A stretch of 64,000 nucleotides of DNA from an uncultured bacterium (GTDB lineage Bacteria > UBP4 > UBA4092): positions 195,283 through 259,282 of the forward strand of contig CAVYHJ010000002.1 in NCBI GenBank assembly GCA_963768165.1. Reading direction: 5' to 3'. The notes below the pieces were generated by a model that did not search any database, was not told the DNA's origin, and saw only the letters and a program-made list of their open reading frames with translations. The position numbers were made by a program, and so were the translations under genes. Position 1 is the stretch's first letter; each line of letters begins with the position of its first letter. This document shows, in pieces, positions 3,043 through 34,560 of the stretch.

Positions 3043-4068
3043 ATGTCATCTGCCCTAATTTCCGTTCATCAATTAACCAAAACTTTTAAAACTTTTCACC
3101 GTAAGGAAGGCGTTGGTGGTGCGGTTTACAATTTATTCAAGCGGGATTATCGTCAAGTCCTGGCGGTTGACCATATCTCGTTTGAAATTCAAGACGGGGA
3201 ATTCATTGGATACATCGGCCCCAATGGCGCGGGAAAATCCACCACGATCAAAATGTTAACTGGTATCCTCGCGCCAACGTCCGGCGATATTCGAGTCGCG
3301 GGATTTATCCCTTGGAAACAGCGTCGGAAATATGTCACGCAAATCGGTGTGGTGTTTGGTCAGCGGACTCAGCTCTGGTGGGATATCGCCGTCATTGAAT
3401 CCTTTAAACTATTGCAAAAGATTTACGAGATTCCGTTGGACGTTTTCAAAAAACAACTGGACACCTACACTGAGATTCTTGAACTAAAAGAATTCCTCCA
3501 CACGCCTGTCCGTAAACTCAGTTTGGGTCAAAGAATGCGCTGTGATTTAACCGCTTCCCTACTACACCAGCCAAAAATTCTTTTTCTCGATGAGCCGTCG
3601 ATTGGATTGGACGTGGTCGCCAAATCTCGCATCCGTGATTTCTTAAAATATCTTAACCAGCAATTCAAAACCACAATCCTTTTGACCACCCATGACTTGG
3701 ATGAGATTGAGAAACTCTGTCCGCGTATTGTTCTCATAGACCACGGAAAAAAAGTCTATGACGGATTGCTTGATACTCTTTTGGATTCCTGTGTCCTGAC
3801 TCAAAAAATTACCGTTGACCTGGAAGACTCCTCGAAATTGGATTTCCTGCAATCGAAAAAAGGGAACGGGATTATGGATTATGCACGGATTAATCCCTAT
3901 CAAGGAACCATCACGATTGACCGCAAAAAAATGAGCGCGGGGGAAGCGGTTGCATTAGTCTTAACCAAGACGACCGTAAAAGATTTAAAGATCGAAGAAC
4001 CCTCAATCGAAGATGTCATCCGGGATATCTATGAAGGGAAACAAATTCTTCCATCGAGTAACCTATGA
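3043..4068 (+). CDS. ABC transporter ATP-binding protein (ABC-2 type system)
   Basis: Walker A GPNGAGKST, signature LSLGQRMR, Walker B LFLDEPSIGLD; ATGA overlap with next gene. Confidence 0.9.
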   Translation: MSSALISVHQLTKTFKTFHRKEGVGGAVYNLFKRDYRQVLAVDHISFEIQDGEFIGYIGPNGAGKSTTIKMLTGILAPTSGDIRVAGFIPWKQRRKYVTQIGVVFGQRTQLWWDIAVIESFKLLQKIYEIPLDVFKKQLDTYTEILELKEFLHTPVRKLSLGQRMRCDLTASLLHQPKILFLDEPSIGLDVVAKSRIRDFLKYLNQQFKTTILLTTHDLDEIEKLCPRIVLIDHGKKVYDGLLDTLLDSCVLTQKITVDLEDSSKLDFLQSKKGNGIMDYARINPYQGTITIDRKKMSAGEAVALVLTKTTVKDLKIEEPSIEDVIRDIYEGKQILPSSNL

Positions 4069-4880: not shown

Positions 4881-5684
4881 ATGCTTAAAACGATTATCTT
4901 TCATCTCAAAATCGGGTTCGGCCAGCAGGTGCAATTCCTTAAAGCGAAAATGGCGTATCAGGAAGATTTCTGGATTGGGCTGGTCGCGAACACTCTCTTG
5001 CACGTGGTCAACTTAATATTTATTAACGTCATATTCGAACAGACCAAGTCTCTGGCAGGCTGGGGAAAATATGACGTGTTCTTTATCTACGGAATGTCCA
5101 TCATCCCTTACTCTCTTTTCCACGGACTCTTTTCCAATATCTATTATTTGGCGAATGATTATATTGTCGAAGGAAATCTGGACCGGATTCTCCTCCGTCC
5201 GGTCAATAGCCTTTATCAGATTTATACCCAGAAAGTAGAACTGGAAGATTTAAGCGATATTTTTCTCGGTATTGGTATCCTGATTTATTCTTCCTTGGCT
5301 CTGCATTTACATTGGGGGATTCTGGAATATTTCGGATTGATTTTCTTTGTGATTTGCGGAGTGGCGGTATTTGTCGGCGTATTCACGACTTTATCATGTC
5401 TCAGTTTCTGGTTTTCCGACCGCACCGGCTTGATTCCCCCGGTCTATAACATGATGCAATTCGGCAGGTATCCTGTGACTATTTATAATTCCGTTGTCAA
5501 ATTCATCCTATCTTGGATCATCCCCTTTGCCTTTATCGGATTCTACCCCTCGACCTGGTTTATCCGCCGAGCGGAGTTCTCGCATTTTCTTCTCATCACA
5601 CCCGTCGTTGCCTTCGGTTGTATGTTCGTCGGCTACCTTACCTGGCATTTCGGATTACGACGATATGAGAGTACGGGAAGTTAA
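4881..5684 (+). CDS. ABC-2 family transporter permease (second subunit)
   Basis: Polytopic 267-aa protein starting 1 nt after the previous stop; same operon. Confidence 0.7.
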   Translation: MLKTIIFHLKIGFGQQVQFLKAKMAYQEDFWIGLVANTLLHVVNLIFINVIFEQTKSLAGWGKYDVFFIYGMSIIPYSLFHGLFSNIYYLANDYIVEGNLDRILLRPVNSLYQIYTQKVELEDLSDIFLGIGILIYSSLALHLHWGILEYFGLIFFVICGVAVFVGVFTTLSCLSFWFSDRTGLIPPVYNMMQFGRYPVTIYNSVVKFILSWIIPFAFIGFYPSTWFIRRAEFSHFLLITPVVAFGCMFVGYLTWHFGLRRYESTGS

Positions 5685-7512: not shown

Positions 7513-8016
7513 ATGAAGAAAATAATTCTATTCAGTTCGCTATTCGTATTTTTCATGATTGGATGGACTTGGACAAAAGTTGCGTGGACTAATTCTTTGG
7601 GTCCATTCGAAGACGTATATACACTGATTCCAATGAGCGGGTACACTACACTTCAGATCCAGTATGAATATTCAACAACAAGGTTTCAATTAAAATTGCC
7701 ATCCAAACCTGATTTGATTATGGAAAAGATTGAGAAAATAAAATTGTCAGTGAGTAAAAGTCCACATCCCTACCATATCATTATTGAGTTCAGTTCTGAT
7801 TATACTACTCAATTTGCTAAGCTTACTAGAAAAAACATAGGAAAATATATGGCAGTAATTGCGGATAACAAAGTGCTGGCTTGTAGAGTAATTACAAATA
7901 CCACTTCGAATACTTACATATTTATCAATTGGAGCGGTACTAACGAAGAGAATTCCCAATTCATAAAGTGGCTTAAAGGCAAGCCTCTGGAATTTTATTT
8001 TATTGTAATACCGTAA
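7513..8016 (+). CDS. Hypothetical secreted protein
   Basis: N-terminal signal-peptide-like segment MKKIILFSSLFVFFMIGWTWT; GGGAGG RBS upstream. Confidence 0.35.
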   Translation: MKKIILFSSLFVFFMIGWTWTKVAWTNSLGPFEDVYTLIPMSGYTTLQIQYEYSTTRFQLKLPSKPDLIMEKIEKIKLSVSKSPHPYHIIIEFSSDYTTQFAKLTRKNIGKYMAVIADNKVLACRVITNTTSNTYIFINWSGTNEENSQFIKWLKGKPLEFYFIVIP

Positions 8017-8083: not shown

Positions 8084-8464
8084 TTATCGCAAGTTCCACC
8101 GGTTCATATGGTCATCCCATGGATGGTTGCCGGTGGTAATTCCCAATATGCCATTAAAGCCAATGGCAACCCACTGTTTTTTGAGTTTCCCGATAGTATC
8201 TCTCACAACTTTATCAAACCGGATGATTTTTGCCTTTATAGTATACTCGCCTGCCTTGACTTCATCACCCAAAGGCATCGATAGATGTATCGTAACGGTA
8301 ACAGTCTGTTTAGGATCATACTCATGATTGGAAACAAAACAAGCGCCCGATCCGCTGATGTTCATGGTGATAGTTTCATCGGTAAAGGTATCCCCTTTAG
8401 GATCAATCCCTTGTACTTCAATGGGGACATCTAGGAAATATCTCTTTAATCTCCTGTTATCCAT
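8084..8464 (-). CDS. PilZ domain protein (c-di-GMP binding type)
   Basis: N-terminal RxxxR (RRLKR) followed by NISGSG (D/NxSxxG) motif typical of PilZ. Confidence 0.6.
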   Translation of the reverse strand: MDNRRLKRYFLDVPIEVQGIDPKGDTFTDETITMNISGSGACFVSNHEYDPKQTVTVTIHLSMPLGDEVKAGEYTIKAKIIRFDKVVRDTIGKLKKQWVAIGFNGILGITTGNHPWDDHMNRWNLR

Positions 8465-8662
8465 TACAATTTGCCATATTAATTAGATACCCATGCGGGA
8501 ATATATCCCGCATAAATCGTACCATATTTAATAAAAAAATCCCGGTGAACAGGAAGGTAAACCGCTCTACTTGGCAGAACTATCCTCTAAATCCCGTTAA
8601 AAAATAGGCGTTGTTGGATAGACAGGGGAAATTGAATCCGGGGCAGGTAAGAAACTTAATAA

Positions 8663-10996
8663 CTACGGCTTTTTATCCTTATGCTCGATCTTCTTGAAAT
8701 CATCAAGGGTTTCAGTCTTTTTGTTGAGGTCGTTTTTTAACCGCTGTAACGCCACTCTCATGACATCTCCATGAGAAATCCGCTTACCGTCCATGCGGGA
8801 CTGTACGTCAAGCCATAGGCTGTGTACCATATTAATATCTTCCTCACTCAATTGAGGAGCATGGGCACCCAAATTAAAGACATATTCAAACCCGTCCATA
8901 TCCACGACTTTAAACTGGACTTGTCGACGGGGTTTTTGCGGGAGCCGTTCCCAAGCTTGGCCAATGAGCTTTTCCTGTTCCCGGGCGTTCATTTTGGCAG
9001 ATAGACCGGTCACGATTTCAGCGGAATCCAGCCGCACCGCCGTTTGCGCCAGCGCATCGAATATATTATTGGAAGGAACCACCAGCAGGTCTACATGTTT
9101 CCCGTGTTTTTCAGCCATATTGACCACCGCGGTAAATAGGCGTTGTTCGTAATCCCGGAATAAGTTTTCCTGGTACAGGTCTCGTTCCCCGCTATCCGGT
9201 CCGGTAAGTAAGCGTATGGTGGTAACTACCACATCCTGTGCCACAGTATCGGTTTCATCCAACATATGTTCCAAGTGAGCGAGGAGATTGTAATTATGTA
9301 CCGCCACTAAAATATTGCCCGGTCGGGTTTGTACGGATTCCAGGCTGACTTCATGTTCTTGCGAAAGATTAAATTGTTCCAGGGAAGATACGGATTTATC
9401 CACTCTTTTGTGATTAATGTATTCCGAAACCGCAAATACGGTATAAAAAATACAGGTAAAGGCAATCCCTGAAATCGTGGCGATTTCTTTGGTAAATATA
9501 TTCACGACAGCGATGAAAAGTAAAACAGACGTAATCAGGATAAGTCCAAACGGGATTTCCAAAGTACCAATATATAAATTCCCCGGGACTTTCCATTCCC
9601 GCGGTGATTTGTCCTTATAGCGCAATACCACCATCGCCAGCCCTTTGAAGGCAAAAGACCATACCACACCAAAGGCGTAGGCTTCACCGAGCATATAGAC
9701 GTCTCCATGAGAACCCACGATGGTTAATAGTTGCATAAAGACAATCAAATTGATCATCCGGTAAGTGGTGCCGTATTTTTTCTGCGGTTTTCTAAACCAG
9801 GACGTCAGCACACCGTCTTCACTCAGCCGGTTGAGTACGCCGTTCGACCCGACAATGGCGGTATTCACCGCGCCGGAAAGCATTAAAAATCCCACAAAGA
9901 CTACAAAGGCTTGGAATAATAAGCGTAACGACAGTGGGCCAATCATATACATCGAAAGACCCGATATTAAATTGTCAAAGTATTGCGGTCGTACCGAGTC
10001 CGGGATAATCATAGAAGCAAAAATGCTGACCAGGGAAGTGAATATCAGGGAATAAACAAAGATGACAAAGCCGGCGCGCATAAGGTTTTTATGTTTGGGA
10101 TATTCCAGTTCCCTGTTCACCTGCGCCAGGGATTCTTCTCCGCTCATGGCTAAAACCGCATGGCCAAATGCGATCATGATTCCCAGTACCCCCATCCACA
10201 TGCCGAGTCCCCCGCGCATTCCAAACCGGGTTTCAGGGGGCGGTGCACTTGGATCCGCGGGGACAGCGTTGGGAGTATGAGTTAATGGATAAAATGCTTT
10301 AGGGAATATTTTCGGCATCCATCCGATAGCATCTTTGCTATATTCCATATGGCTGGCGGTCGGGGGAGGGGGCATTTGAGTTATCCCTTTTTGGATAAGA
10401 GTCAGGCTGCACCAGAATATCATAATGACCACCATCACGGTAGTAATTTTCATTATTTGTAAAGCATCCGAGGACGATTCATGCATCCCCTGGATATTCC
10501 GCCACCAGAAATACAGGGTTATAAATATGGCGATTCCAGCGGAAATCAAGTTAATGACCGATTTATCGGGCTGCCAGGGATGGCCAAAATAGGTCATAGT
10601 TTGCGCCACCAGTCCTACAATATACTGTCCTGCCGACACACCTGAAATGGGTCCCGTGAGTACATAGTCAAACATCAGGGCAGACACACTGATTTTAGCG
10701 AGCGTCCCGCCCATGGCTTCTTTGACCACGCGGTACACCCCACCCCGGGTAAACATGGCACAGCTTTCAACATAGACTGCCCGCACGGCGTAACTGAATA
10801 ACATGACCCCCAAAACCAGCCAGGGAGCCGCCCGGCCTGCCGCTTCTTCCGCAATCCCACCGACATAAAATGCCGATGAGCCCAGGTCGTTTAAGACAAT
10901 AGCCGCCGCGCGCCAAAAGGAGATAAAGGACAACATCACGGTCGTCGCGATAACTACCCGGACTCGATTTTGTTGAGGTGTAGTAGTAGGTTCCAT
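8663..10996 (-). CDS. APC-superfamily transporter with about 300-aa C-terminal cytoplasmic (USP-like) domain; possible K+ or amino-acid importer
   Basis: About 12 predicted TM segments in the N-terminal 480 aa plus a soluble C-terminal domain; immediately preceded by riboswitch-like leader A. Confidence 0.7.
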   Translation of the reverse strand: MEPTTTPQQNRVRVVIATTVMLSFISFWRAAAIVLNDLGSSAFYVGGIAEEAAGRAAPWLVLGVMLFSYAVRAVYVESCAMFTRGGVYRVVKEAMGGTLAKISVSALMFDYVLTGPISGVSAGQYIVGLVAQTMTYFGHPWQPDKSVINLISAGIAIFITLYFWWRNIQGMHESSSDALQIMKITTVMVVIMIFWCSLTLIQKGITQMPPPPTASHMEYSKDAIGWMPKIFPKAFYPLTHTPNAVPADPSAPPPETRFGMRGGLGMWMGVLGIMIAFGHAVLAMSGEESLAQVNRELEYPKHKNLMRAGFVIFVYSLIFTSLVSIFASMIIPDSVRPQYFDNLISGLSMYMIGPLSLRLLFQAFVVFVGFLMLSGAVNTAIVGSNGVLNRLSEDGVLTSWFRKPQKKYGTTYRMINLIVFMQLLTIVGSHGDVYMLGEAYAFGVVWSFAFKGLAMVVLRYKDKSPREWKVPGNLYIGTLEIPFGLILITSVLLFIAVVNIFTKEIATISGIAFTCIFYTVFAVSEYINHKRVDKSVSSLEQFNLSQEHEVSLESVQTRPGNILVAVHNYNLLAHLEHMLDETDTVAQDVVVTTIRLLTGPDSGERDLYQENLFRDYEQRLFTAVVNMAEKHGKHVDLLVVPSNNIFDALAQTAVRLDSAEIVTGLSAKMNAREQEKLIGQAWERLPQKPRRQVQFKVVDMDGFEYVFNLGAHAPQLSEEDINMVHSLWLDVQSRMDGKRISHGDVMRVALQRLKNDLNKKTETLDDFKKIEHKDKKP

Positions 10997-11016
10997 TATC
11001 CTGTCAATTCACTCCA

Positions 11017-11237
11017 ATAAAAAACGCTCGAAAGGCACGTTCCCTTCGAGCGGTTATTGCCACCACTAAAAGCGCTATGTTAGAAACGTCCACTGTCTCT
11101 CCCACGCCTGCGGGGTTAGCTGTTGGGTTCGGGTTGAAAAGTAACCCTGCGCGTTTCCGCGATTCACCCCCTGACATCGGTTCCCCCGTCTCTTGCGAGC
11201 TCGGCGATCTTTCGTGGGATTCTTATTCCAAATTTAA
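11017..11237 (-). promoter_or_regulatory. Candidate c-di-AMP (ydaO/kimA-type) riboswitch leader, copy A, with intrinsic terminator
   Basis: Conserved core shared with three other copies (RNA sense ...GGGGGAACC...GGGGUGAAUC-CGCG-GAAA-CGCG-CAGGGUUACUUUUCAACCCGAACCC..CAGCUAACC..GCAGGCGUGGG); 3' hairpin CGCUCGAAGG/CUUUCGAGCG plus U-run at 11017-11055; extended -10 TGATATAAT at 11245-11253; start codon 10996 about 20 nt past the U-run. Confidence 0.6.
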
Positions 11238-11270
11238 CGGAATTATTATATCATACTTGGGGGGATTTGA

Positions 11271-11591
11271 ATGATGCATATAGACTTTACATATTTGTTC
11301 CGAATAGCCTGCATATCCACTGCGTTATGCTTCTTGTGTTATGAATATTATTATTTTAAGTGTTACTTTTATTTAAGAAAGCATTTTCTGGACTTTCGTT
11401 TACGATGGAATCGTCTGTATTTTGCATACTTAAATATGAAAAATTATCGGGATTATATGTTGGAAAAAGGAGTAACAGAGGAAACGACAACGTTAAAAAA
11501 GTATATTACAATACTTAGAATAAGTATTCTTTTAGGTGTGATTAGTTTGATTTTCGTGGTAGTATTTGGTCATTTAAGTCACCTAATTTAG
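11271..11591 (+). CDS. Small membrane protein, tandem paralog 1
   Basis: 106 aa, N-terminus MMHIDFTYLFRIA, TTETTTLK motif, two TM segments; paralog of the next gene. Confidence 0.4.
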   Translation: MMHIDFTYLFRIACISTALCFLCYEYYYFKCYFYLRKHFLDFRLRWNRLYFAYLNMKNYRDYMLEKGVTEETTTLKKYITILRISILLGVISLIFVVVFGHLSHLI

Positions 11592-11622: not shown

Positions 11623-11934
11623 ATGATGCATACTGTCTATACATATCTCTTCCGAATAGCCAGTGTATCCTTTGTGTGGTACTTATTACGTTATTTATAT
11701 GATGGTGTAGTGTTTACCTTTTATTTAAAGGAGCATTTTCATGACTTTGAAAAAAGATGGTTTAGTGGAAGTCGTGCTTACTTCAATACGAAAAGTTTTA
11801 GAGATTATATGTTTGAGTTTGACATTACCACAGAAACTACGACTTTAAAATGGCATCTTAAAAAAGTTAGAATAAGTTTTCTTTCATGTGTTGTTAGTTA
11901 TATTTTAGCGGTAGTATTTTATATTTTAAGATAG
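11623..11934 (+). CDS. Small membrane protein, tandem paralog 2
   Basis: 103 aa, MMHTVYTYLFRIA...TTETTTLK; same architecture as 11271..11591. Confidence 0.4.
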   Translation: MMHTVYTYLFRIASVSFVWYLLRYLYDGVVFTFYLKEHFHDFEKRWFSGSRAYFNTKSFRDYMFEFDITTETTTLKWHLKKVRISFLSCVVSYILAVVFYILR

Positions 11935-12183: not shown

Positions 12184-12663
12184 ATGAAAAAAACAGTTTC
12201 AATAATTTTGAATATACTTTCTTTGCTATCAATGTTTTTCAGTATTTTATGGACTTTTGTAATGTCATTGTTGTTATTCCGATGTTTACTTTATCCTGTA
12301 AAGTTTTCTGTGCAAAAAGATTCCCTAACTAATGGAATTTTTTATCGTTTTGTAGCTGCATATCCTATCTCTTTTTGCTTGATTGGAATTATTGCATTTC
12401 TCGGCCAGTTAGTCGTGTCTTTTGGGGTTTTAAAAAGGTTTAAATGGGGACTGTATGGGGTAAGAATTATTCTATTTCTTTTTCTCATAGCTGATATAAT
12501 CTATGATTATAGCAATCTAACCTATATTGATATTAACATTGGATTGATTGTATTCTTGTTAATTTTCTTTTATCTCCCCATCGTCAAAAGCCTGTTTGAA
12601 AAGCAACCCCCGATTCCCAGCGAACCCACCCCCTCTTTCCCCCCTCCCGCCAGTGCCGGATAA
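12184..12663 (+). CDS. Polytopic membrane protein with Pro-rich C-terminal tail, tandem paralog 1
   Basis: 159 aa; C-terminus FLPIVKSLFEKQPPIPSEPTPSFPPPASAG nearly identical to next gene; 5' region (CCCTCCCGCCAG..TAATAACCCTCACTGAA..ATAGATAGAGATG) also duplicated. Confidence 0.45.
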   Translation: MKKTVSIILNILSLLSMFFSILWTFVMSLLLFRCLLYPVKFSVQKDSLTNGIFYRFVAAYPISFCLIGIIAFLGQLVVSFGVLKRFKWGLYGVRIILFLFLIADIIYDYSNLTYIDINIGLIVFLLIFFYLPIVKSLFEKQPPIPSEPTPSFPPPASAG

Positions 12664-12722: not shown

Positions 12723-13268
12723 ATGAAAAAAGCTATAACCATAATAATGTACCTTCTCGCTGTCCTTTGTATCTTGTTCAGTGTGATAGGTCTTTATCAA
12801 GGAATATCCTTTTTATCTGTATTATTCTTTCTCCCAGATTCAGTTTGGTATGAAATAAAAAGCGTGGGGATTCACTCGTCCTCATCAGTCATACACACGC
12901 AGAGTGTCTTACAATGTTTTCTAGATATTATTTTTGGTATCATTCAGTTTTTTGGATTTATAGGGGTATTACAGAAAAAGAAATGGGGATTGTATTGTGT
13001 TCAGGTAGTCTTGATTACTAGTTTTATTGACTTGATTCTGACAATGATAGATTATTACTCGGTAATTCAACCGATGATGAAACAACAAGGGGGCAATGTT
13101 CATTTGTTGATAGGCGGAAATCAATGGAAATTTATAAGGGGATTTGTCTTGGAAATCATCCTCTTGGTTTTCTTTTTCCTCCCCATCGTCAAAAGCCTGT
13201 TTGAAAAGCAACCCCCGATTTCCAGCGAACCCGTCCCCTCTTTCCCCCCTCCCGCCAGCGTCGGATAA
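12723..13268 (+). CDS. Polytopic membrane protein with Pro-rich C-terminal tail, tandem paralog 2
   Basis: 181 aa; same conserved C-terminal tail and duplicated 5' region. Confidence 0.45.
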   Translation: MKKAITIIMYLLAVLCILFSVIGLYQGISFLSVLFFLPDSVWYEIKSVGIHSSSSVIHTQSVLQCFLDIIFGIIQFFGFIGVLQKKKWGLYCVQVVLITSFIDLILTMIDYYSVIQPMMKQQGGNVHLLIGGNQWKFIRGFVLEIILLVFFFLPIVKSLFEKQPPISSEPVPSFPPPASVG

Positions 13269-23022: not shown

Positions 23023-25002
23023 CTATTTGGTTTTGGCGGAGTAGTTGTAGATAGCCAGCGAGATGACGCTGAGGAAGGATTCGAGGAGATAGTCCTGTTC
23101 TTGCGAGAGGAACTGAGAATCCTGCGGACGACCGATAGCGAGGACGCCGACAATATCGTTTTTGACGTTCAAGGGGATAAAGCGCCACGCGGAAGAGGAG
23201 AGAGTCTGGGTCTCCCGACCGGCAAGTTCCTTGTGCTCAAATACCCATAAAGCGATAGTCATTTCGTGACTATTAAATTTCACAGAGTCACCGGTTTGGG
23301 AGCGGATAGTGAGTTTACCGGTTTTGTCGGGAAGCAGGAGCGCCGAGTCACAGGCGAACATTTCGGAAATGTCCGAACTGATTCTATCGAGCAAATCAAT
23401 AAACCCGATAGCGTGATACAAATCCTGGCTGAATTCATTGAGCAACGAAATGTACCGCACCTGGGTGCGGGAAGATTCCGATTGCCGTTTGAGACGGTCG
23501 GCAAGGAGACTTGTCACAATGCCGACTAAAAACATGACAAAGAACGTGGGCAGATAACTCATATCGCTGACTGTAAAAGTGAAAATCGGCGGAACAAAAA
23601 AGAAATCGAAACAAAGCACGCTCAACAGGGATGCGACCAGACCGCCGATGAGTCCGCGATAAATCCCTGACAGAATCACGGGAATGATGAATAAAAGGGC
23701 AACATTCGTGAGACCGATGTAAGAATGAAGAGGAAAGCAAATGAGAGTGGTTGCGCCCACGATGGCAAGGCTCATAAGATAGGAACGCCAATCAAGAACG
23801 AGATTGCTTCGTCGCTGCGCTCCTCGCAATGACAAAGGTTGTGGTGACGATTCGCCACCGACTACCAAGACTTGAATAGGATTGCTTTTATCAATAATCT
23901 GGTTCAAGAGTGACCCGCGTATCATTCTACGAAACCGGGATTGGCCGGAGAAACCAACAATAATCAACGAGGCATTTTTTGAACGGGCAAACCGCACGAC
24001 TTCATCGGCAGGCTGGTTGCTGGAAAGACGGACAATTTTCCCGCCCAATTCTTTGGCGAGATTAAAATTCTTCTCCAACTGTTTAGCCCTTTGCGGGTCG
24101 AGCGTAGTTTGCACCTGTGGTTCGACATAGACCGCAAACCAATCGGCTTTTAAATCTTCCGCCAACCGATGTGCCACGCGGACGGGTTGTTCGGACAAGG
24201 GACTCGGACTGATACATACCATAATCCGGGTGCCGACGGGCCAGGGACCTTTAATGCCCTGCAATTGCATGTAAGAGAGCATGGCATCGTCCACGTGCTT
24301 GGCGGTATAGCGCAGGGCTAATTCGCGGAGCGCGAGCAAAGTGCCTTCTTTAAAATAATTCTGGGAGGCGAGTTTCGCCATATTGGCCATGTAGACTTTA
24401 CCTTCGGTTAAGCGCTGGAGAAGTTCTTCCACGGGAAGGTCTACGAGAGCAATTTTATCCGCCAGTTCCAGAATGCGGTCGGGGACGGTTTCCTTCACTT
24501 CAATTTTGGTAATTTGATAAATAATGTCATTGACACTTTCAATATGCTGGATGTTCAAGGTGGTGTAGACACTGATACCGTTATTGAGGAGTTCTTCAAT
24601 ATCTTGAAACCGTTTTACATGGCGTGACCCGGGGACATTGGTATGCGCCAATTCATCCACCAGAACATATTTGGGTTTGCGCTTAAGAATATAGTCCAGG
24701 TTAAACTCATCCAAGACCATACCCTGATATTCTATTTTCAGGAGGGGAGAACGTTCCAATCCAAAAATCAACTGTTCGGTTTCGGCACGACCATGGGTTT
24801 CGACAATGCCGATAATGATATCTTCGCCCTTTTGTTTGATCGCCTGGGCTTCCTGCAACATGCGGTAGGTCTTGCCGACACCGGCCACGTACCCTAAGAA
24901 TATTTTAAGAAATCCCCGGGTGCGATGCTGCTGTTCCTGTTCTTTATTAAACAGGTTCAGCAGTTGATCCGGATCGGGGCGATTTTGATTCTGTTCAACC
25001 AT
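23023..25002 (-). CDS. kdpD: KdpD sensor protein lacking histidine-kinase domains
   Basis: N-terminal P-loop GVGKTY, USP-like region, 4-TM block and GAF-like C-terminus; ends at 659 aa with no H-box or HATPase motifs; directly downstream of kdpC. Confidence 0.75.
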   Translation of the reverse strand: MVEQNQNRPDPDQLLNLFNKEQEQQHRTRGFLKIFLGYVAGVGKTYRMLQEAQAIKQKGEDIIIGIVETHGRAETEQLIFGLERSPLLKIEYQGMVLDEFNLDYILKRKPKYVLVDELAHTNVPGSRHVKRFQDIEELLNNGISVYTTLNIQHIESVNDIIYQITKIEVKETVPDRILELADKIALVDLPVEELLQRLTEGKVYMANMAKLASQNYFKEGTLLALRELALRYTAKHVDDAMLSYMQLQGIKGPWPVGTRIMVCISPSPLSEQPVRVAHRLAEDLKADWFAVYVEPQVQTTLDPQRAKQLEKNFNLAKELGGKIVRLSSNQPADEVVRFARSKNASLIIVGFSGQSRFRRMIRGSLLNQIIDKSNPIQVLVVGGESSPQPLSLRGAQRRSNLVLDWRSYLMSLAIVGATTLICFPLHSYIGLTNVALLFIIPVILSGIYRGLIGGLVASLLSVLCFDFFFVPPIFTFTVSDMSYLPTFFVMFLVGIVTSLLADRLKRQSESSRTQVRYISLLNEFSQDLYHAIGFIDLLDRISSDISEMFACDSALLLPDKTGKLTIRSQTGDSVKFNSHEMTIALWVFEHKELAGRETQTLSSSAWRFIPLNVKNDIVGVLAIGRPQDSQFLSQEQDYLLESFLSVISLAIYNYSAKTK

Positions 25003-25012
25003 TGATTTTCAC

Positions 25013-25579
25013 TTATTTTTTAAGGACATCCAGTGCCATATTCAATTTTAATACATTGACAACCGGATCGCCGAACAACCCCAAGAGAGGTTTTTCGGTA
25101 TATTTTTGAACCAAATCAGTTACGACATCATCCTGCAAACTGCGAGATTTTGCAACTCTTGGCACTTGAAGCAAGGCGGCATCCAGACTTATATGGGGAT
25201 CGAGACCGCTGGCCGAGGATGTGACCAAGTCCACGGGAACAGGCGCATCGGGTGGCAAATTATTTTCCGCACGAACCGCGCGTGCCGTGGAATCAATCTG
25301 GCTAATCAATTTCTGGTTGGTGGGACCGAAATTGGTCGCATTGGAATTGGTGGCATCGAAATTAGCCGCCGAGGGACGCCCGTGGAAATATTCGGGTTTG
25401 GTGAAGGATTGTTCTATTAATTCGGAACCAACAACCTTGTTGTTCACTGTCGCCAGACTGCCATTGGCCTTGTGTGGGAAAAGTATCTGTGCGATTCCGG
25501 TCATTGCCAACGGGTATATCAACCCGGTGAGAATGGTGAATACGATTAAACTCAAGATGGAAATTTTTAACTGTTTCAT
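25013..25579 (-). CDS. kdpC: K+-transporting ATPase subunit KdpC (operon 1)
   Basis: 188 aa, N-terminal TM, conserved GRPSAANFD and SGLDPHIS segments. Confidence 0.85.
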   Translation of the reverse strand: MKQLKISILSLIVFTILTGLIYPLAMTGIAQILFPHKANGSLATVNNKVVGSELIEQSFTKPEYFHGRPSAANFDATNSNATNFGPTNQKLISQIDSTARAVRAENNLPPDAPVPVDLVTSSASGLDPHISLDAALLQVPRVAKSRSLQDDVVTDLVQKYTEKPLLGLFGDPVVNVLKLNMALDVLKK

Positions 25580-25596
25580 TTGTATAATCTCCTTTT

Positions 25597-25686
25597 TTAA
25601 TAACTTCTACCCGACTTTAGTCGAGGGTTCGGGGACTTCAGTCCCAATTTAAGGGCTAAAGCCCTAAGAACCGTGGACTAAAGTCC
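25597..25686. repeat. Interspersed double-hairpin palindromic repeat (family R1), copy 3
   Basis: CTTCTACCCGACTTTAGTCGAGGG..GGACTTCAGTCC..GGGCTAAAGCCC..GGACTAAAGTCCCGTAGAAGAA between kdpC and kdpB. Confidence 0.6.
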
Positions 25687-25702
25687 CGTAGAAGAAAATA
25701 TG

Positions 25703-27739
25703 TTATGCCCAACCTAATACAACGATGAGCATGTCAATTAGTTTGATACCGATGAAGGGAAGAAGCACTCCGCCCAACCCATATACCAGTAAATTCATTT
25801 TCAAGAACGAGGAAACGGAAACGGCACGTAATTTGACGCCCCTCAATGCCAACGGGATTAAGAACAAAATAATAATCGCGTTGAAAATGACGGCGGACAA
25901 AATCGCACTCCCAGGATTATTTAACCTCATCACATTCAGAATATTCAACTGCGGATAAGCGACCGCAAACATTGCCGGAACGATGGCGAAATATTTCGAG
26001 ACATCGTTGGCAATACTAAAAGTAGTAAGCGCGCCACGCGTGATAAGGATTTGTTTTCCGACTTCCACAATATCGAGAAGTTTCGTGGGATTGGAATCCA
26101 AATCAATCATATTGGATGCTTCCCGCGCCACCTGCGTGCCTGCATTCATAGCGACCGCGACATCGGCTTGCGCGAGAGCGGGTGCGTCATTAGTCCCGTC
26201 TCCAATCATCGCGACAAGGTTACCGTCCTCTTGTGCCTTGCGAATTAATGCCAATTTGGTTTCGGGTTTGGCCTGAGCAACGAAATCATCCAGCCCGGCT
26301 TCCGCGGCAATCGAAGCAGCGGTGAGCGGGTTATCGCCGGTAATCATGGTGGATTTGATACCCATTTCACGGAGTTGCGCGAGACGAGCTTTAATGCCTT
26401 GTTTCAGAACGTCTTTGAGACGAATCACGCCAAGAACTCTTTTCCCGTCAGAAACGACCAAAGGCGTATTACCTTGTTTGGCGAACCCTTCCACGATGTC
26501 CTTGACTCCGGCAGGGATTGTGGCATTGGACTGTTTCAGAAATTCTTCAATCGCGTCCAAGGAACCCTTGCGGATTTTTTTGCCATCAATATCAATCCCG
26601 CTCATGCGTGTTTCGGGAGTGAAAGGTACGAACACGGCACCTTCGGGAGCACGGATATCGCTTCCCTTGATACCTTTTTCGGTTTTACAGAGGGTTACAA
26701 TACTTCTGCCTTCGGGAGTTTCATCGGATAGTGAGGATAACAAGGCACAGTCCACCAATTCTGCTTTTTCAACTCCAGCAGAAGGAACCAAATCGGTTGC
26801 CATACGATTGCCGAGAGTGATGGTACCCGTCTTATCGAGCAAGACGATATTGACATCGCCTGCCGCTTCTACCGCACGACCGCTCAGAGCGATGACGTTG
26901 TGTTGTAATAGTCTATCCATCCCTGCGATACCGATAGCGGGAAGTAAACCGCCAATGGTGGTCGGCATGAGGCATACCAAGAGAGAAATCAATATCGGGA
27001 CGGTGGTCGCGATACCCAAATAATTGGCATAGGTGGGCAGGACGATAACGACGATTAGGAACAACACTGTGATGCCGACAAGGAGAATTTCTAAAGCGAT
27101 TTCATTGGGTGTCTTTTGACGTTTCGCGCCTTCGACCATAGAAATCATGCTATCGAGGAATGTCTCACCGGCATTCGCCGTGATACGGATTTTGATATGT
27201 CCCGATAATAGTTTGGTTCCACCAGTCACGCCACTGCGGTCACCACCGGATTCCCGAATCACGGGAGCGGATTCACCAGTGATGGCAGATTCGTCCACAA
27301 GAGCGACGCCTTCGATAATTTCTCCATCACCGGGAATGACTTCCCCTTCAATAACCAGAATCAAATCGCCTTTGCGAAGATCCAAGGCGGATACTTTTTC
27401 TTTCGCTCCACTTTCCAATATTTTAAGAGCAAAGAGTTCGCTGCGTGCTTTCCGCAAAGATTCCGCACGTGCTTTCCCTTGAATTTCCGCCAAGGCTTCC
27501 GAGAAGGTGGCGAAAAGAACGGTCACCCAGAGCCAAAGGGTAATTTGCAAATTAAACCCGAAACTGGCATGATGGGTGATATTGATTACCGTGATGATAG
27601 TGGTAATCACAGCGCCGATTTCAACGACCAACATTACGAGATTGCGCCATAATAAAAAGGGATTTAATTTTTTAATAGCTTCCTGCAATCCCTTGAACAG
27701 AAAGTCCGCTTGAAATATACTTCGTTTCGTTTGTGCCAT
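25703..27739 (-). CDS. kdpB: K+-transporting P-type ATPase subunit KdpB (operon 1)
   Basis: P-type motifs [21 protein letters not shown]; 678 aa. Confidence 0.95.
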
Positions 27740-27806
27740 ATATTATCTCCTTAGAACCACCACCCCCTTCCCCCTCCTTAATTAAGGAGGGGGACTGAGG
27801 GAGTGA

Positions 27807-29507
27807 TTAAAATGTTTTTCCTTGCAACATGAATAAATGTTCCAACACGGGACCGAGGGTGAATGCCGGGAAATAGGTCAATGCGCCGACAATAAAGACT
27901 ACGCAAACCAGCATAGCGACAAATAACCAGCCGGTGGTTGGAAATGTAGCCAAACTGGTAGGAACAATCTTTTTCCTGACCAGTGCTCCGGCAATAGCCA
28001 GTCCTGGAATGAGGGTGGAAAATCGTCCAACCAACATGGTGGCGCCACCGGTTAAATTATAAAACACGGTATTGGCGTTAAGTCCGGCAAACGCGGAACC
28101 GTTATTCCCACCATAGGATAAAAAGGCATATAACACTTCCGACCAACCGTGGGCGGAGGGATTATTCATGCTGGACAATCCGGTGGCGGTAATCATAGCG
28201 AATGCCGCAAAGATTTTAAGAACAATGGGCGCTGCCAAAATTGCAATCACCGTCCAAATCATTTCATAAGGACCAAGTTTCTTGCCAAGATATTCAGGGG
28301 TACGTCCGATCATCAATCCAGCAATAAACATAGTGGCGAAGACATAGAAAAACATTCCGATGAGTCCGACACCCAATCCGCCGAAGATGACTTCCCCAGT
28401 GCATAAGTTAAACATATAGACTAGACCCGTGAGGGGGAGCATACTGTCGTGCATAGAGTTCACGGAGCCGTTGGAAGTGACGGTGGTCATGTGTCCCCAT
28501 GCAGCAGAATTGATAATCCCAAAACGGGCTTCTTTGCCTTCCATATTCCCCCCAACCAGATGCAACTTATCGAAAAAGGGGTTACCCTGGGTTTCGCTAT
28601 AGAATACTACGGCCAAACCTATAATAAATAGGGTTAACATGGAATAAAAGATGGCTTTGCCTTGACGGCTATCGCGTACCATAAAACCAAACATGAACAC
28701 TTGCGCGGTGGAAATGAAGAGAATTGCCATCATTTCAAAAATATTAGACAAGCCAGTGGCATTCTCAAAGGGATGCGCGGAGTTGACGTTGAAGAAACCG
28801 CCGCCATTAGTTCCCAACTGTTTAATGGCAATCTGTGAAGCTGCAGGACCAACGGCAATGGTTTGCGCACCGCCTTCCAATGTCTTTACTACCTCATACG
28901 GATGTAAGGTTTGAACGACACCTTGAGACACCAAAATGAGGGTAAGGATAATGCTCAATGGCAATAATATATATATTACAGAACGGGTCATATCCACCCA
29001 GTAATTGCCTATCTTGTCGGTATCTTTGCGAATAAATCCGCGAATCATGGCGACCATGACTGCCATCCCCATCGCGGGGGTAACGAAATTATGTACCGTG
29101 AGTCCCAGCATTTGGGTGAGATAACTCAGGGTACTTTCCCCGCCATACGCCTGCCAGTTGGTATTGGTGACAAAAGAGATGGCGGTATTTAATGCCAAAT
29201 CCCAACGGACGGCAGCGAATTTTTGCGGATTCAAAGGCAGATGCCCTTGAAGAAGCTGCAATAAAAATAAAGCGGCGAGAAATATTACATTGAACCAGAA
29301 TACCGCCCAGGCATAAGTTTTCCAGTTCATTTCTTCGGATTCATTGACGCCGCAGAGACGGTATATTCCACGCTCAAGAGGTTTTAAGAACCCGCTGAGA
29401 AATGTCCATTCTCCGTTATACACCCGGAACATATATTTCCCTGTCGGGATGGACAGGAAAAACATGATTGCCAAGGCAACAACAACTACAATCATATCTA
29501 TTAACAT
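27807..29507 (-). CDS. kdpA: K+-transporting ATPase subunit KdpA (operon 1)
   Basis: 566-aa polytopic protein with KdpA-typical GTNGGGFF selectivity-filter-like motifs. Confidence 0.9.
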   Translation of the reverse strand: MLIDMIVVVVALAIMFFLSIPTGKYMFRVYNGEWTFLSGFLKPLERGIYRLCGVNESEEMNWKTYAWAVFWFNVIFLAALFLLQLLQGHLPLNPQKFAAVRWDLALNTAISFVTNTNWQAYGGESTLSYLTQMLGLTVHNFVTPAMGMAVMVAMIRGFIRKDTDKIGNYWVDMTRSVIYILLPLSIILTLILVSQGVVQTLHPYEVVKTLEGGAQTIAVGPAASQIAIKQLGTNGGGFFNVNSAHPFENATGLSNIFEMMAILFISTAQVFMFGFMVRDSRQGKAIFYSMLTLFIIGLAVVFYSETQGNPFFDKLHLVGGNMEGKEARFGIINSAAWGHMTTVTSNGSVNSMHDSMLPLTGLVYMFNLCTGEVIFGGLGVGLIGMFFYVFATMFIAGLMIGRTPEYLGKKLGPYEMIWTVIAILAAPIVLKIFAAFAMITATGLSSMNNPSAHGWSEVLYAFLSYGGNNGSAFAGLNANTVFYNLTGGATMLVGRFSTLIPGLAIAGALVRKKIVPTSLATFPTTGWLFVAMLVCVVFIVGALTYFPAFTLGPVLEHLFMLQGKTF

Positions 29508-29737: not shown

Positions 29738-29896
29738 TAAATAAAAAACCCACTCACTCTTCCACGCCTACGAGGTTAGCTGACGGGCTCGGGTTGAAAA
29801 GTAACCCTACGCTTTCGCGATTAGCCCCAACTTCCGGTTCCCCCGTATCTTTCGAATTCGGCGAACTTAAGTGGTAATACTGCTATATTTTTCTAC
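29738..29896 (-). promoter_or_regulatory. Candidate c-di-AMP (ydaO/kimA-type) riboswitch leader, copy B
   Basis: Same conserved core as copies A, C, D; internal GNRA-capped hairpin CGC-GAAA-GCG; 3' tail GAGUGAGUGGGUUUUUUAU. Confidence 0.6.
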
Positions 29897-30140: not shown

Positions 30141-30716
30141 TTATTTGGCAGAAGATTGAACTTGATCCAATGCGATATTTAACTTCAAGACATTGACGCC
30201 CGGATCACCAAGGAAGCCCAAAGTTCGAGAATCGGTATTTTTCTGGATCAGATCTTGTACCGTTGCCTCATCCATTTTTCGAGCTTTAGCAACCCTTGGA
30301 ACTTGAAATAAGGCAGCCTCCAGGCTTATATGGGGATCCAAACCACTGGCGGACCCTGTGACCAAGTCTACTGGCACTAGTGCATCTGCGGGCAGGTTAT
30401 TTTCCTGTCGAATAACATTCGCAGTAGAATCAATTTGACTAATAAGTTTTTGGTTGGTGGGTCCCAAGTTAGACCCGGTGGAATTCCCACCATCAAAATT
30501 CGCCGGAGATGGCCGCCCATGAAAATACTCCGGTTTGGTAAAAGATTGTTCGATTAATTCAGAACCAACCGTTTTCCCATTCACCTGTATTAGACTGCCA
30601 TTGGCTTTATATGGGAATAAAACCTGACAGATGCCTGTCATCATCAAGGGATAAAATAACCCTGTTAAGATTGAAAAAACTACAAAGGTTGTGATCGATC
30701 TTGTTAAATCTTTCAT
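30141..30716 (-). CDS. kdpC: K+-transporting ATPase subunit KdpC (operon 2)
   Basis: 191 aa, paralog of 25013..25579. Confidence 0.85.
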   Translation of the reverse strand: MKDLTRSITTFVVFSILTGLFYPLMMTGICQVLFPYKANGSLIQVNGKTVGSELIEQSFTKPEYFHGRPSPANFDGGNSTGSNLGPTNQKLISQIDSTANVIRQENNLPADALVPVDLVTGSASGLDPHISLEAALFQVPRVAKARKMDEATVQDLIQKNTDSRTLGFLGDPGVNVLKLNIALDQVQSSAK

Positions 30717-30729
30717 TTTTAGGACCTCC

Positions 30730-32793
30730 TTAAGCCCAACCTAAAGATACAATGAGCATGTCTATGAGTTTAATACCGATAAATGGTAATATCACACCAC
30801 CCAACCCATAAATTAACAAGTTTCTCTTCAAGAAAGCAGAAACTGTAGTGAGTCGTAACTTGACCCCTTTCAATGCCAAAGGAACCAAACAAAGAATGAT
30901 AATGGCATTGAAGATAACAGCAGACAAAATCGCACTGTATGGGTTTGACAACCCCATCACGTTTAATATATTCAACTGTGGATAGGTAATTGCAAACATA
31001 GCCGGTATGATGGCGAAATACTTGGATACATCATTGGCTATGCTGAACGTGGTTAAAGCTCCACGGGTAATGAGAATTTGTTTACCCACTTCAACGATAT
31101 CCAATAGTTTGGTGGGATTGGAATCCAAATCCACCATATTGGAGGCTTCCCGTGCCACTTGAGTTCCGGCATTCATTGCTACCGCTACATCGGCTTGAGC
31201 CAGGGCAGGAGCATCATTGGTCCCATCCCCAATCATAGCGACCAAGTTCCCATCGGACTGATATTTGCGTATCAACTGTAATTTGGTTTCCGGTTTGGCT
31301 TGCGCTACAAAATCATCCAATCCAGCTTCTGCGGCAATAGACGAAGCAGTTAATGGATTGTCACCGGTAATCATAATCGACTTAATCCCCATCTCTCGTA
31401 GTTGTGCCAACCTGGCTTTGATACCTTGCTTTAATACATCTTTTAACCGGATGACCCCTATGATCTTTTTGCTATTTGCTACAACCAAAGGAGTATCGCC
31501 TTGTTTCGCAAATTCTTCGACTTTGTTTCTCACATCACTAGGGATACTGAAATGAGATGGGCGTATAAATTCTTCGATGGCATCAAGCGCTCCTTTTCGA
31601 ATCATTTTTCCATCAATATCTATTCCACTCATCCTGGATTCAGGTGTAAAAGGAACAAAAACCGCACCTTCGGGAGCCCGGATATCACTTCCTCTAATCC
31701 CTTTTTCAGTTTTACACAATGTTACTATGCTTCTTCCTTCCGGTGTTTCATCTGAAAGTGAAGATAATAAAGCGCATTCGGTCATTTCTTTTTTATCTAT
31801 CCCTGCCGCCGGGATCAATTCAGTCGCCATGCGGTTTCCTAGGGTGATCGTCCCGGTCTTATCCAACAGAACCACATTGACATCACCGGAAGCTTCTACG
31901 GCACGACCGCTAAGGGCGATCACATTGTGTTGCAATAATCTATCCATGCCAGCAATACCAATAGCCGGAAGTAATCCTCCGATCGTGGTGGGCATTAAGC
32001 AAACCAATAAGGAGATTAAGATTGGAATGGTAGTAACGATTCCCATATAACTGGCATAAGCGGGAAGGGTTACGACGACAATCACGAACAATACGGTTAT
32101 ACCAATCAGCATGATCTCCAAAGCGATTTCGCCGGGTGTTTTTTGCCGTTTCGCACTTTCCACCATTTTAATCATGCCATCCAGAAATGTTTCTCCAGGA
32201 TTGGCAGTAATTTTGATTTTGACTTTTCCAGAGATTAATTTTGTTCCTCCGGTTACCCCACTCCGGTCTCCTCCAGATTCTCGAATAACCGGAGCTGATT
32301 CTCCTGTTATGGCCGATTCATCGATTAAGGCAACACCTTCAACTATTTCACCATCTCCAGGAATTACATCTCCATCAGCGACTAAAATTATGTCGCCTTT
32401 GCGAAGAGACAGGGCAGATACAGTCTCTATGCTACCATTGTCCAACAATTTTTGGGCAGACAATTCGCTTCTGGCACGGCGTAAAGATTCAGCACGAGCT
32501 TTTCCCTGAATTTCAGCCAAGGCTTCCGAAAAGGTTGAGAAAATAACAGTAAACCACAACCAGAGGGAAATCTGTAAATTAAAGGAGAAACTGGTGTGAT
32601 GGGCAATACTGACGATGGTTACTACAGTAGTAACCATCGCGCCGATCTCCACAACCAGCATGACAATATTTCTCCATAGTGTAAAAGGATTTAATTTTAT
32701 TATGGATTCTTTCAATCCTTGTAACAAGAAATCCGCTTGAAATAGGTTTTGTTTTTTTTGTGTCATATGCAATCTCCTTATGCGTTGGGTCAT
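30730..32793 (-). CDS. kdpB: K+-transporting P-type ATPase subunit KdpB (operon 2)
   Basis: [17 protein letters not shown]; paralog of 25703..27739. Confidence 0.95.
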
Positions 32794-32811
32794 GACATCG
32801 TCATGACTCTA

Positions 32812-34560
32812 CTAAAAAGTTTTTCCTTGCAACATAAATAAATGTTCCAATACAGGTCCTAGTGTAAACGCCGGAAAATACGTTAAGGCACCCACAATGA
32901 ATATTACACAGACTAACATGACAACAAACAACCAACCAGTGGTAGGAAAAGTGGCTGTACTTGTAGGAACAATCTTTTTCTGTACTAGTGAACCGGCAAC
33001 AGCCAGTCCCGGTATTAAGGTGGCGAACCGACCTACTAGTATGGTGACTGATCCTGTGAGGTTATAAAATAAGGTGTTAGCGTTAAGACCCGCAAAAGCA
33101 GAACCATTATTACCACCAAAGGATAAATAGGCATAGAGTATTTCTGACCAGCCATGTGCTGAGGGATTATTTAAGCTGGATAATCCTGTCGGTGTAATAA
33201 TGGCAATCGCTGAAAATATTTTGAGTATGATAGGCGCTGCCAGAATTGCAACCACCGTCCAAATCATTTCATAAACTCCTAATTTTTTACCCAGATACTC
33301 AGGAGTTCGTCCTATCATCAACCCGGCTATGAACATGGTGGTAAATACATAAAACAAAACACCAACCGTTCCTATGCCGACACCGCCGAAAATTACTTCT
33401 CCGGTACCCATAAAGAACATATAAACCAAACCGGTGAGCGGGAGCATACTGTCATGCATGGAATTAATCGAACCATTGGCTGTTCCTGTTACCAATCCTC
33501 CCCACACAGCGGAGTTTATAATCCCACAGCGAGTTTCCTTGCCTTCCATATTCCCGCCCACAACGTGTAATTTAGCAAACAAAGGATTCCCTTGCGTTTC
33601 TGTATATACACAAATGATTAACCCAATCACTAAGAGAATCAACATGGAATAAAAGATGGATCGGCCCTGACGAACATCTTTGACCATATATCCAAAGGTA
33701 AAAACAGGTGCACTGACCAAAAGGATAATCGCCATCATTTCCAAAAACATAGTCAACCCGTTTGGATCTTCAAAAGGATGTGAGGAATTCGTGTTGAAGA
33801 AACCTCCGCCATTGGTACCCAACTGTTTAATAGAAATTTGTGAGGCTACAGGACCCATGGCAATGGTCTGAGACCCGCCTTCCAAAGTTTTCACAGTTAC
33901 ATAAGGATGTAAGTTTTGAATAACACCCTGGGATCCCAATATCAATCCTAAAACAATACTTAATGGAATTAACACGTAAAGAATCGACCGGGTCAAGTCC
34001 ACCCAATAGTTACCAATAAAATTGGTATCTTTGCGTATAAATCCCCGGGTCAGAGCAACCAATACTGCTAAAGCTATGGCAGGAGAGACAAAATTATGCA
34101 CAGTCATACCTAGCATTTGGGTAAGATAACTCATGGTGGTTTCTCCCCCATAAGCCTGCCAGTTGGTATTGGTGATAAAGGAGATAGCTGTATTTAATGC
34201 CAGGTCCCATTTCAACCCCGGCAATTTTTGTGGATTCAGAGGAAGATAACCCTGAACCAGTTGTAAGACAAACAAAGTTATCAAAAAGATAACATTTGAC
34301 CAAACAAATGCCCAAGCATAGGTTTTCCAATTCATCTCCTCATCTTCATTAATGAAACAAACCCGGTAGATTCCTTTTTCCAATGGCCGGAATACCGGGG
34401 AAAGAAATGTTCTTTTCCCTTCGTATACATGAGCCATGAATTTCCCTATTGGGATGGACAGGAGTAATGTAACGATTAAACCAATTGTGACTACAAGTAT
34501 ATCTATCATATTAATTATCCTTTCTTCAAAAGATGGTCTTTCATTAATCTCATTAATCAA
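32812..34560 (-). CDS. kdpA: K+-transporting ATPase subunit KdpA (operon 2)
   Basis: Paralog of 27807..29507; alternative start at 34509 (MIDILVV, GAAAGGA RBS) is plausible. Confidence 0.9.
   Translation of the reverse strand: MINEINERPSFEERIINMIDILVVTIGLIVTLLLSIPIGKFMAHVYEGKRTFLSPVFRPLEKGIYRVCFINEDEEMNWKTYAWAFVWSNVIFLITLFVLQLVQGYLPLNPQKLPGLKWDLALNTAISFITNTNWQAYGGETTMSYLTQMLGMTVHNFVSPAIALAVLVALTRGFIRKDTNFIGNYWVDLTRSILYVLIPLSIVLGLILGSQGVIQNLHPYVTVKTLEGGSQTIAMGPVASQISIKQLGTNGGGFFNTNSSHPFEDPNGLTMFLEMMAIILLVSAPVFTFGYMVKDVRQGRSIFYSMLILLVIGLIICVYTETQGNPLFAKLHVVGGNMEGKETRCGIINSAVWGGLVTGTANGSINSMHDSMLPLTGLVYMFFMGTGEVIFGGVGIGTVGVLFYVFTTMFIAGLMIGRTPEYLGKKLGVYEMIWTVVAILAAPIILKIFSAIAIITPTGLSSLNNPSAHGWSEILYAYLSFGGNNGSAFAGLNANTLFYNLTGSVTILVGRFATLIPGLAVAGSLVQKKIVPTSTATFPTTGWLFVVMLVCVIFIVGALTYFPAFTLGPVLEHLFMLQGKTF

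Follow-up and report, generated by a model that had tools for sequence, protein, structure and literature searches.

We analysed a 64,000-nucleotide (nt) stretch of DNA from an uncultured bacterium (contig CAVYHJ010000002.1, positions 195,283 to 259,282; hereafter the window), in which a 777-residue transporter of the APC fold is encoded on the minus strand at 8663..10996 (ATG start at 10996, stop codon included), directly behind a cyclic di-AMP (c-di-AMP) riboswitch. Judging from profile comparisons and from the residues of its putative ion site, this protein is probably a KimA/Kup-like proton-coupled K+ importer gated by a c-di-AMP OFF-riboswitch. The first-pass annotation of this DNA had described the 777-aa open reading frame (ORF) as an APC-type transporter and had suggested that it imports K+ rather than amino acids. 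The ORF is confirmed by its ATG start, its Pfam match and its more than 8000 homologues, and the suggestion about the substrate gains good computational support from sequence profiles, hhalign comparisons and conserved K+-site residues.

Kinship with KimA and the putative K+ site

At the level of database labels, the protein looks like an amino-acid permease. Its only Pfam match is AA_permease_2 (PF13520; residues 25-521, E 6e-48). The best 120 of its more than 8000 homologues, which are 61-69% identical and 762-830 aa long, carry the source names 'APC family permease' or 'amino acid transporter'; those that are named belong to Blastocatellia and other Acidobacteriota. These labels would suit an APC-type permease for amino acids or polyamines that imports an osmolyte or amino acid (glutamate, glutamine, proline) as part of c-di-AMP osmotic homeostasis, and in Firmicutes osmolyte and amino-acid uptake is indeed under c-di-AMP control. 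However, the K+/H+ symporter KimA (YdaO) from Bacillus subtilis (PDB 6S3K, 8B70, 8B71), which belongs to the KimA subfamily within the KUP family, itself matches AA_permease_2 alone (1.3e-41), and most of its close homologues are named 'APC family permease' too. The database label of our query is therefore uninformative as to the substrate.

Profile comparison was far more discriminating. A profile built from 31 diverse family sequences of 27-69% identity (A3) was searched against all PDB sequences and retrieved KimA as the top match (6S3K/8B70/8B71; E 4.6e-14, 54.7 bits), followed by xCT at 9e-4 and by LAT and y+LAT transporters above 0.3. We also scored a panel consisting of KimA, in a sequence identical to chain 6s3k_B, and five controls taken from the annotated E. 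coli K-12 genome. Compared with the 54.7 bits of KimA, the A3 hidden Markov model gave 3.4 bits for Kup, -0.9 for AdiC, -1.2 for GadC, -5.1 for CadB and -11.7 for AroP. When A3 was aligned by hhalign with an 18-sequence alignment of the KimA family, the probability was 98.9% (E 3.5e-17) over 440 columns, beginning at transmembrane helix 1 (TM1) and ending at the tail's first strand. Against single sequences, the probability was 98.2% for KimA, 25.8% for GadC, 11.5% for AroP and at most 0.5% for Kup (0.4%), CadB and AdiC, the E. coli amino-acid and polyamine permeases together spanning 0.1-26%. By profile, KimA is thus by far the nearest protein of solved structure and the amino-acid carriers stay at noise level; nothing in these comparisons amounts to clear orthology with a characterised amino-acid permease and its substrate-binding residues.

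Structural modeling complemented these comparisons. An AlphaFold model based on a shallow alignment of 25 close homologues (A1) reached a mean predicted local distance difference test (pLDDT) score of 60 and was not used. The model based on A3 (pLDDT 85, predicted template modeling score 0.70) displays a 12-TM LeuT/APC fold, in which the transmembrane domain comprises residues ~24-536 (9389..10927, minus strand). Its Foldseek alignment to KimA covers 710 columns. In a structure search with this model, cation-chloride cotransporters, which likewise join a cytoplasmic C-terminal domain to an APC domain, ranked before pure amino-acid transporters, the first of which appeared at rank 39.

We then considered the residues that line the ion pathway. 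According to cryo-electron microscopy, molecular dynamics and mutagenesis of KimA, K+ is coordinated by D36, Y43, T230 and Y377 with a contribution from T121; D36 and Y377 form the inner gate and Y43 the outer one, E233 serves proton coupling and D117 contributes a cytoplasmic K+ site (PMC6994465, PMC10284832). In a joint MAFFT alignment, KimA D36 and Y43 correspond to query D37 and Y44 and to E. coli Kup D23 and Y30 in TM1; KimA D117, T121 and S125 to query D110, T114 and S118 and to Kup E116, T120 and S124 in TM3; KimA T230 and E233 to query S285 and E288 and to Kup T226 and E229 in TM6; and KimA Y377 to query Y440 and to Kup Y367 in TM10. The Kup equivalences D23, E116 and E229 agree with those published (PMC6994465), which validates the alignment. 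The similarity extends to the surrounding motifs. The TM1 motif is NDLGSSAFY in the query, SDALSSVAY in KimA and GDIGTSPLY in Kup, while the query and KimA have FDYVLTGPIS and VDYILTVAVS in TM3, MSGEES and LTGVEA in TM6, and EAYAFGV and PLYAVGV in TM10. In 222 family sequences, conservation reaches at least 94% at every one of the eight positions, and E288 is kept in 216 of the 218 sequences that could be aligned there. Conservation of the site is equally high in all 10 alignable homologues that are linked to a riboswitch.

The same positions set the query apart from amino-acid carriers. At the seven positions other than the TM6 Glu, taken in the above order, AdiC, CadB, GadC and AroP have N/N/A/G, F/A/F/F, L/H/G/L, I/I/I/V, A/A/G/E, I/V/M/G and S/T/L/S. 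At 7 of the 8 pocket positions the query therefore differs from all four permeases, its polar or acidic K+-site residues standing where the carriers have hydrophobic or small ones. The TM6 Glu is common to all four permeases, so that E288 is not diagnostic. Compared with these proteins, the query also lacks both the permease-type TM1 G-[ST]-G motif and the hydrophobic or small pocket residues; its TM1 is KimA/Kup-like and without the G-[ST]-G-[IV]-F-type motif of AdiC, CadB and AroP. In view of the shared labels, the noise-level scores and the pocket, we regard import of an amino acid or osmolyte as improbable.

The family to which the protein belongs is large. An exhaustive search of representatives of 50%-identity clusters detected 3242 of them at E<=0.001, of which 641 also reach E<=1e-30. 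The 80 best loci, drawn from contigs of one genome per species, belong mainly to Acidobacteriota (Blastocatellia, Vicinamibacterales, Terriglobia, Bryobacterales), with isolated members in Verrucomicrobiia, Chloroflexota, Armatimonadota and Thermodesulfobacteriota. In public assemblies the identical protein occurs as P0001 and on two further metagenome contigs, with the same neighbours. A literature search found no paper describing this family. One of its distinguishing features is a lineage-specific, proline-rich insertion between TM5 and TM6 (residues ~204-262; 10211..10387, minus strand), which is visible in alignment A3, as a gap in hhalign and in the model. The insertion is predicted to be periplasmic and is missing from KimA and from more distant relatives.

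Riboswitch control of the transporter gene

The c-di-AMP aptamer (ydaO class, RF00379) occupies 11090..11216 on the minus strand, which is the coding strand, directly 5' of the transporter, whose ATG lies 94 nt further on. Rfam cmscan matched it over the full length of the model with 92.4 bits (gathering score 38, E 2e-20). The aptamer is followed by an intrinsic terminator at 11015..11052 (minus strand; hairpin 11025-11052), identified by a terminator scan as an 11-bp stem with 7 GC pairs and then UUUUUUAUU with its U6 run. The hairpin is present in both the minimum-free-energy and the centroid fold of the leader. An aptamer followed by a hairpin and a U-run is the usual arrangement of a transcription-terminating OFF switch, and the polarity expected here is accordingly OFF at high c-di-AMP. 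Upstream of the leader, a consensus scan matched a promoter-like site TTCAAA-18-AATAAT (11242..11271, minus strand; pattern match only). Since shuffled sequence gave more promoter-like matches than the region did, this site is weak evidence alone.

The window holds four RF00379 riboswitches according to Rfam, all on the minus strand and with a mean column identity of 89% among the aptamers. The three others (29750-29873, 35440-35565 and 38110-38234) score 92-101 bits. One precedes a kdpA-kdpB-kdpC operon followed by a KdpD-like gene (23023-29507), another a second kdpABC operon (30141-34560), with ~880 nt from the aptamer to the start of kdpA, and one an M23 peptidase gene (37364-38023). As two of these three precede kdpABC, K+ uptake dominates the c-di-AMP regulon at this place. 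The KdpD-like protein (23023-25002, minus strand) has KdpD-N, Usp, DUF4118 and GAF_3 domains, and Pfam detected no histidine-kinase catalytic domain in it; it may be a truncated, sensor-only KdpD.

How typical is the riboswitch for the family? Our own covariance model (R1), built from the four near-identical aptamers, turned out to be less sensitive than Rfam (24.5 versus 65 bits for the aptamer of locus L006). For this reason Rfam was run over all 80 loci, which added L040 to the 12 upstream aptamers found by R1. Altogether, 13 of the 80 loci have a c-di-AMP aptamer directly upstream of the transporter gene on the same strand (L030, L032, L033, L034, L037, L038, L040, L050, L054, L065, L071, L072 and L082). 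They come from Vicinamibacterales, Bryobacterales/Solibacteraceae, Terriglobia, unclassified Acidobacteriota and one Verrucomicrobiia genome. The 20 closest homologues contribute none of these 13 loci, and the association is therefore recurrent but facultative. Two further RNA elements were seen at these loci. In L006, a metagenome-assembled genome (MAG) labelled Chloracidobacterium, the aptamer (5444-5618, plus strand; 65 bits) comes after the transporter homologue and a 132-aa ORF instead of standing upstream. In L025, a Blastocatellia MAG, the small-RNA motif Acido-Lenti-1 (RF01687; 38.9 bits, gathering score 37) is located directly downstream of the transporter homologue (3340-3384, minus strand).

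Taken with the KimA precedent, these features suggest how the system might operate. The LeuT-fold domain would hold a dehydrated K+ between the unwound parts of TM1 and TM6 through D37, Y44, S285 and Y440, with T114 and S118 alongside the bound ion. Proton coupling would fall to the carboxylate of E288, while D110 would be part of the lining of the cytoplasmic exit. K+/H+ would be the likely substrate pair. Transport is expected to be inward by analogy with KimA and Kup and by the OFF-switch logic shared with Kdp. At high c-di-AMP, signalling K+ sufficiency, the aptamer would fold, the terminator (11025-11052) would form and transcription would end before the ATG; at low c-di-AMP, read-through would allow the importer to be made. 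The two Kdp pumps behind near-identical leaders would be co-regulated with the transporter.

A number of observations weigh against this proposal. Identity between the query and KimA is only 15-19% (a single BLASTP comparison of the two gives 26% over 411 aa, E 7e-7). A phmmer search of the 777-aa protein against all PDB sequences returned no match at E<=1, KimA included, and the shallow profile A1 likewise found nothing there, KimA included. Pfam K_trans is not matched even at E<=10, nor is K_trans_C, and an NCBIfam scan of the ORF gave no match. Riboswitches of this class control genes unrelated to K+ as well, here that of the M23 peptidase. At the homologous loci, an upstream riboswitch is absent from 67 of 80, including the 20 closest homologues, all of Blastocatellia type. 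Finally, several site residues are replaced in distant relatives (D to E, Y to F, T to L, S to G), and these proteins, to judge by their sequences, may have other substrates.

The last point touches on whether the query could be a KimA-like carrier with another ion or role, such as transport of NH4+, Na+ or Cs+/Rb+, K+ efflux or K+/H+ exchange. The site residues appear to indicate binding of a small cation and cannot alone fix selectivity or direction, and a wider cation biology is hinted at by distant relatives fused to the Mg2+ channel MgtE. In P0183 (1174 aa, 27% identical to the query in the alignment), an APC domain and a USP-like tail are joined to a complete MgtE (MgtE_N, CBS, MgtE), and the alignment suggests MgtE_N-like C-terminal extensions in P0150, P0167, P0189 and P0221. 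However, the MgtE-fused clade has an altered site (D to E, Y to F, D to E, T to L and S to G), suggesting a different substrate or role, whereas the query retains all K+-coordinating residues of KimA, including both gating tyrosines. Moreover, an OFF switch in common with two Kdp uptake pumps fits an importer, and in known systems exporters are activated, not repressed, by c-di-AMP, which counts against K+ efflux. We thus give another ion or role a low probability and favor K+ import. Two other relatives, P0172 and P0246, have an N-terminal TIR_2 domain (E 1e-12 in P0172) instead of TM1, an unusual TIR-transporter fusion.

The cytoplasmic tail

The first-pass annotation had assigned the protein a cytoplasmic domain of about 300 aa and had suggested that it could be a second site of c-di-AMP sensing. 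The last TM helix of our model extends to about residue 536, which leaves a shorter tail of ~240 aa (537-777). It begins with an alpha/beta domain (residues ~556-710; 8867..9331, minus strand) of beta-alpha-beta-alpha-beta-alpha-beta-alpha topology plus two more strands. A conserved LGAHAP loop (residues 709-714) ends this part and is followed by a conserved extension of three helices (residues ~711-777; 8666..8866, minus strand), defined by the model and the family conservation profile. In the model, the alpha/beta domain adopts the three-layer alpha/beta/alpha USP fold and resembles the c-di-AMP-binding USP domain of KdpD. Across the family, conservation is as strong in the tail as in the membrane domain.

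The USP-like fold of the model makes a nucleotide-sensing role of the tail plausible, and c-di-AMP would be the obvious candidate ligand. In that case, c-di-AMP binding would lock the transporter in an inward-occluded state, and control would be exerted on both RNA and protein, as in B. subtilis KimA, whose own alpha/beta cytosolic domain binds c-di-AMP (PMC10284832). Two features of the query favor such a receptor function, namely the conservation of the tail and the retention, as G664, of the Gly that opens the Gly motif of the beta4-alpha4 loop and is a ribose contact in USPs and KdpD (PMC8214093).

On the other hand, neither of the known sets of contact residues is conserved. The KimA contacts R337, P479, H579, N580, Q581 and S582 map by MAFFT to query S399, A565, Q687, K688, P689 and R690, which are not conserved and lie in a region where the alignment is unreliable. 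The c-di-AMP motif of KdpD, (A/G/C)-x-S-x-S-x2-N ... (Y/F) (PMC8214093), is missing from the beta1-alpha1 region, which reads A564-V-H-N-Y-N-L-L in the query and A-V-R-D-Y-N-T-L in the family. The ATP-type Walker-like motif G-x2-G-x9-G-[ST] is likewise absent from the beta4-alpha4 loop save for its first Gly, G664, in TGLSAKMNAREQEKLIG. We also dropped 'LFTAVV' (620-625) as a counterpart of the older KdpD 'FTAxY' motif, because those residues are not at the ligand interface (PMC8214093) and the revised motif is absent. In the isolated tail, Pfam Usp (PF00582) had no match at E<=10 and Pfam as a whole gave nothing meaningful. Because hhalign of the query tail with those of KimA and Kup produced no signal, sequence gives no grounds for calling the tails homologous. 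Furthermore, many proteins with the USP fold do not bind c-di-AMP. c-di-AMP is a reasonable candidate ligand, but a c-di-AMP receptor in the tail is a tentative and rather doubtful proposition. More generally, dimerisation and/or allosteric control is the probable function of the USP-fold tail, by analogy with KimA.

Neighbouring genes, known systems and biological meaning

On the same strand, 198 nt downstream of the transporter, lies a PilZ-domain gene (8084..8464; 126 aa; PF07238, 27.9 bits versus a cutoff of 22.5), as the first-pass annotation had stated. The annotation had also taken the transporter to be the only gene behind its leader. This is probable, although the 198-nt gap is filled by no more than a weak terminator-like hairpin with a 5-pair stem and U7 (8540..8554, minus strand; pattern match only). 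PilZ was rejected as a functional partner, since tblastn found a homologue in none of the 80 related loci. Convergent with the PilZ gene is a 167-aa ORF (7513-8016, plus strand), also found beside the identical transporter on two other contigs. Its only match is the SecDF P1-head subdomain (PF22599, E 1e-8), and it is apparently a P1-head-like protein that stands alone and is either secreted or anchored. Divergent from the riboswitch leader are two tandem paralogous ORFs of ~105 aa (11271-11591 and 11623-11934, plus strand), which begin MMHIDFTYLFRIACIS and MMHTVYTYLFRIASVS. They are followed by a second tandem pair on the plus strand, paralogous membrane proteins of 159 and 181 aa (12184-12663 and 12723-13268) with near-identical C-termini, LPIVKSLFEKQPPI(P/S)SEP(T/V)PSFPPPAS. 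None of these four ORFs has a Pfam match.

With KimA the transporter shares the 12-TM APC/LeuT fold, a cytoplasmic alpha/beta tail, all residues of the K+ site, gate and proton coupling (D, Y, D, T, S, T/S, E, Y), a ydaO riboswitch with a terminator and the sole Pfam label AA_permease_2. Unlike KimA, to which phmmer draws no connection, it is 777 rather than 607 aa long (a difference of 170 aa), carries the extra ~60-aa TM5-TM6 insertion and has a tail of ~240 aa (USP fold, beta-hairpin and three helices) in place of the ~140-aa PPAT-like one. The two tails have no detectable sequence similarity, and the c-di-AMP contacts of KimA are not recognisably conserved; moreover, the host is a Gram-negative bacterium of Acidobacteriota type, not a Firmicute. 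E. coli Kup (TrkD; KUP/HAK/KT family, Pfam K_trans PF02705 and K_trans_C PF22776) is far more distant, as its 3.4 bits and 0.4% attest. It nonetheless shares the TM1 motif D-x-G-[ST]-S-x-x-Y (DLGSSAFY in the query, DIGTSPLY in Kup), the acidic residue, Thr and Ser of TM3, [ST]-G-x-E in TM6, the TM10 Tyr and a cytoplasmic C-terminal domain. The USP domain of Staphylococcus aureus KdpD (PDB 7JI4) and stand-alone USPs differ from the query tail, which lacks the KdpD c-di-AMP and ATP Walker-like motifs, goes unrecognised by Pfam Usp and bears the additional beta-hairpin and three-helix extension; unlike in KdpD, the domain is joined to a transporter and not to a kinase. A ydaO-class aptamer and terminator also precede a K+ uptake system in kdpFABC of Bacillus thuringiensis (PMC6488665), but the gene controlled here encodes a secondary carrier and not a P-type pump.

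That a ydaO riboswitch controls a KimA-type importer is already textbook knowledge for Bacillus. What is new, judging from sequence comparison, is the protein family, which is too divergent from KimA for pairwise detection, longer, equipped with the TM5-TM6 insertion and a USP-plus-extension tail, and abundant in Acidobacteriota. A bolder view, in which this is a large family of KimA-related K+/H+ symporters whose USP-fold tail represents a new, third structural type of c-di-AMP sensor attached to a K+ transporter, strikes us as speculative and on present evidence unlikely. Even so, in the search for new nucleotide-sensing modules on transporters, the conserved USP-fold tail is a concrete candidate.

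Acidobacteriota rank among the most abundant bacteria in soil. To our knowledge, their ion homeostasis and c-di-AMP signalling have barely been characterised, and c-di-AMP is almost unstudied in Gram-negative soil bacteria. On the bolder view, dual control by c-di-AMP through RNA and protein would exist outside Firmicutes, in Gram-negative soil bacteria. If our main proposal holds true, thousands of 'amino acid permeases' would be re-annotated as probable K+ importers. A c-di-AMP/K+ regulon of Kdp pumps, a KimA-like carrier and a cell-wall hydrolase would then be wired by riboswitches in Acidobacteriota as it is in Firmicutes. Most likely, the result extends a well-established paradigm and overturns nothing, carrying the known potassium circuit of Bacillus to a large, mislabelled family in soil Acidobacteria.

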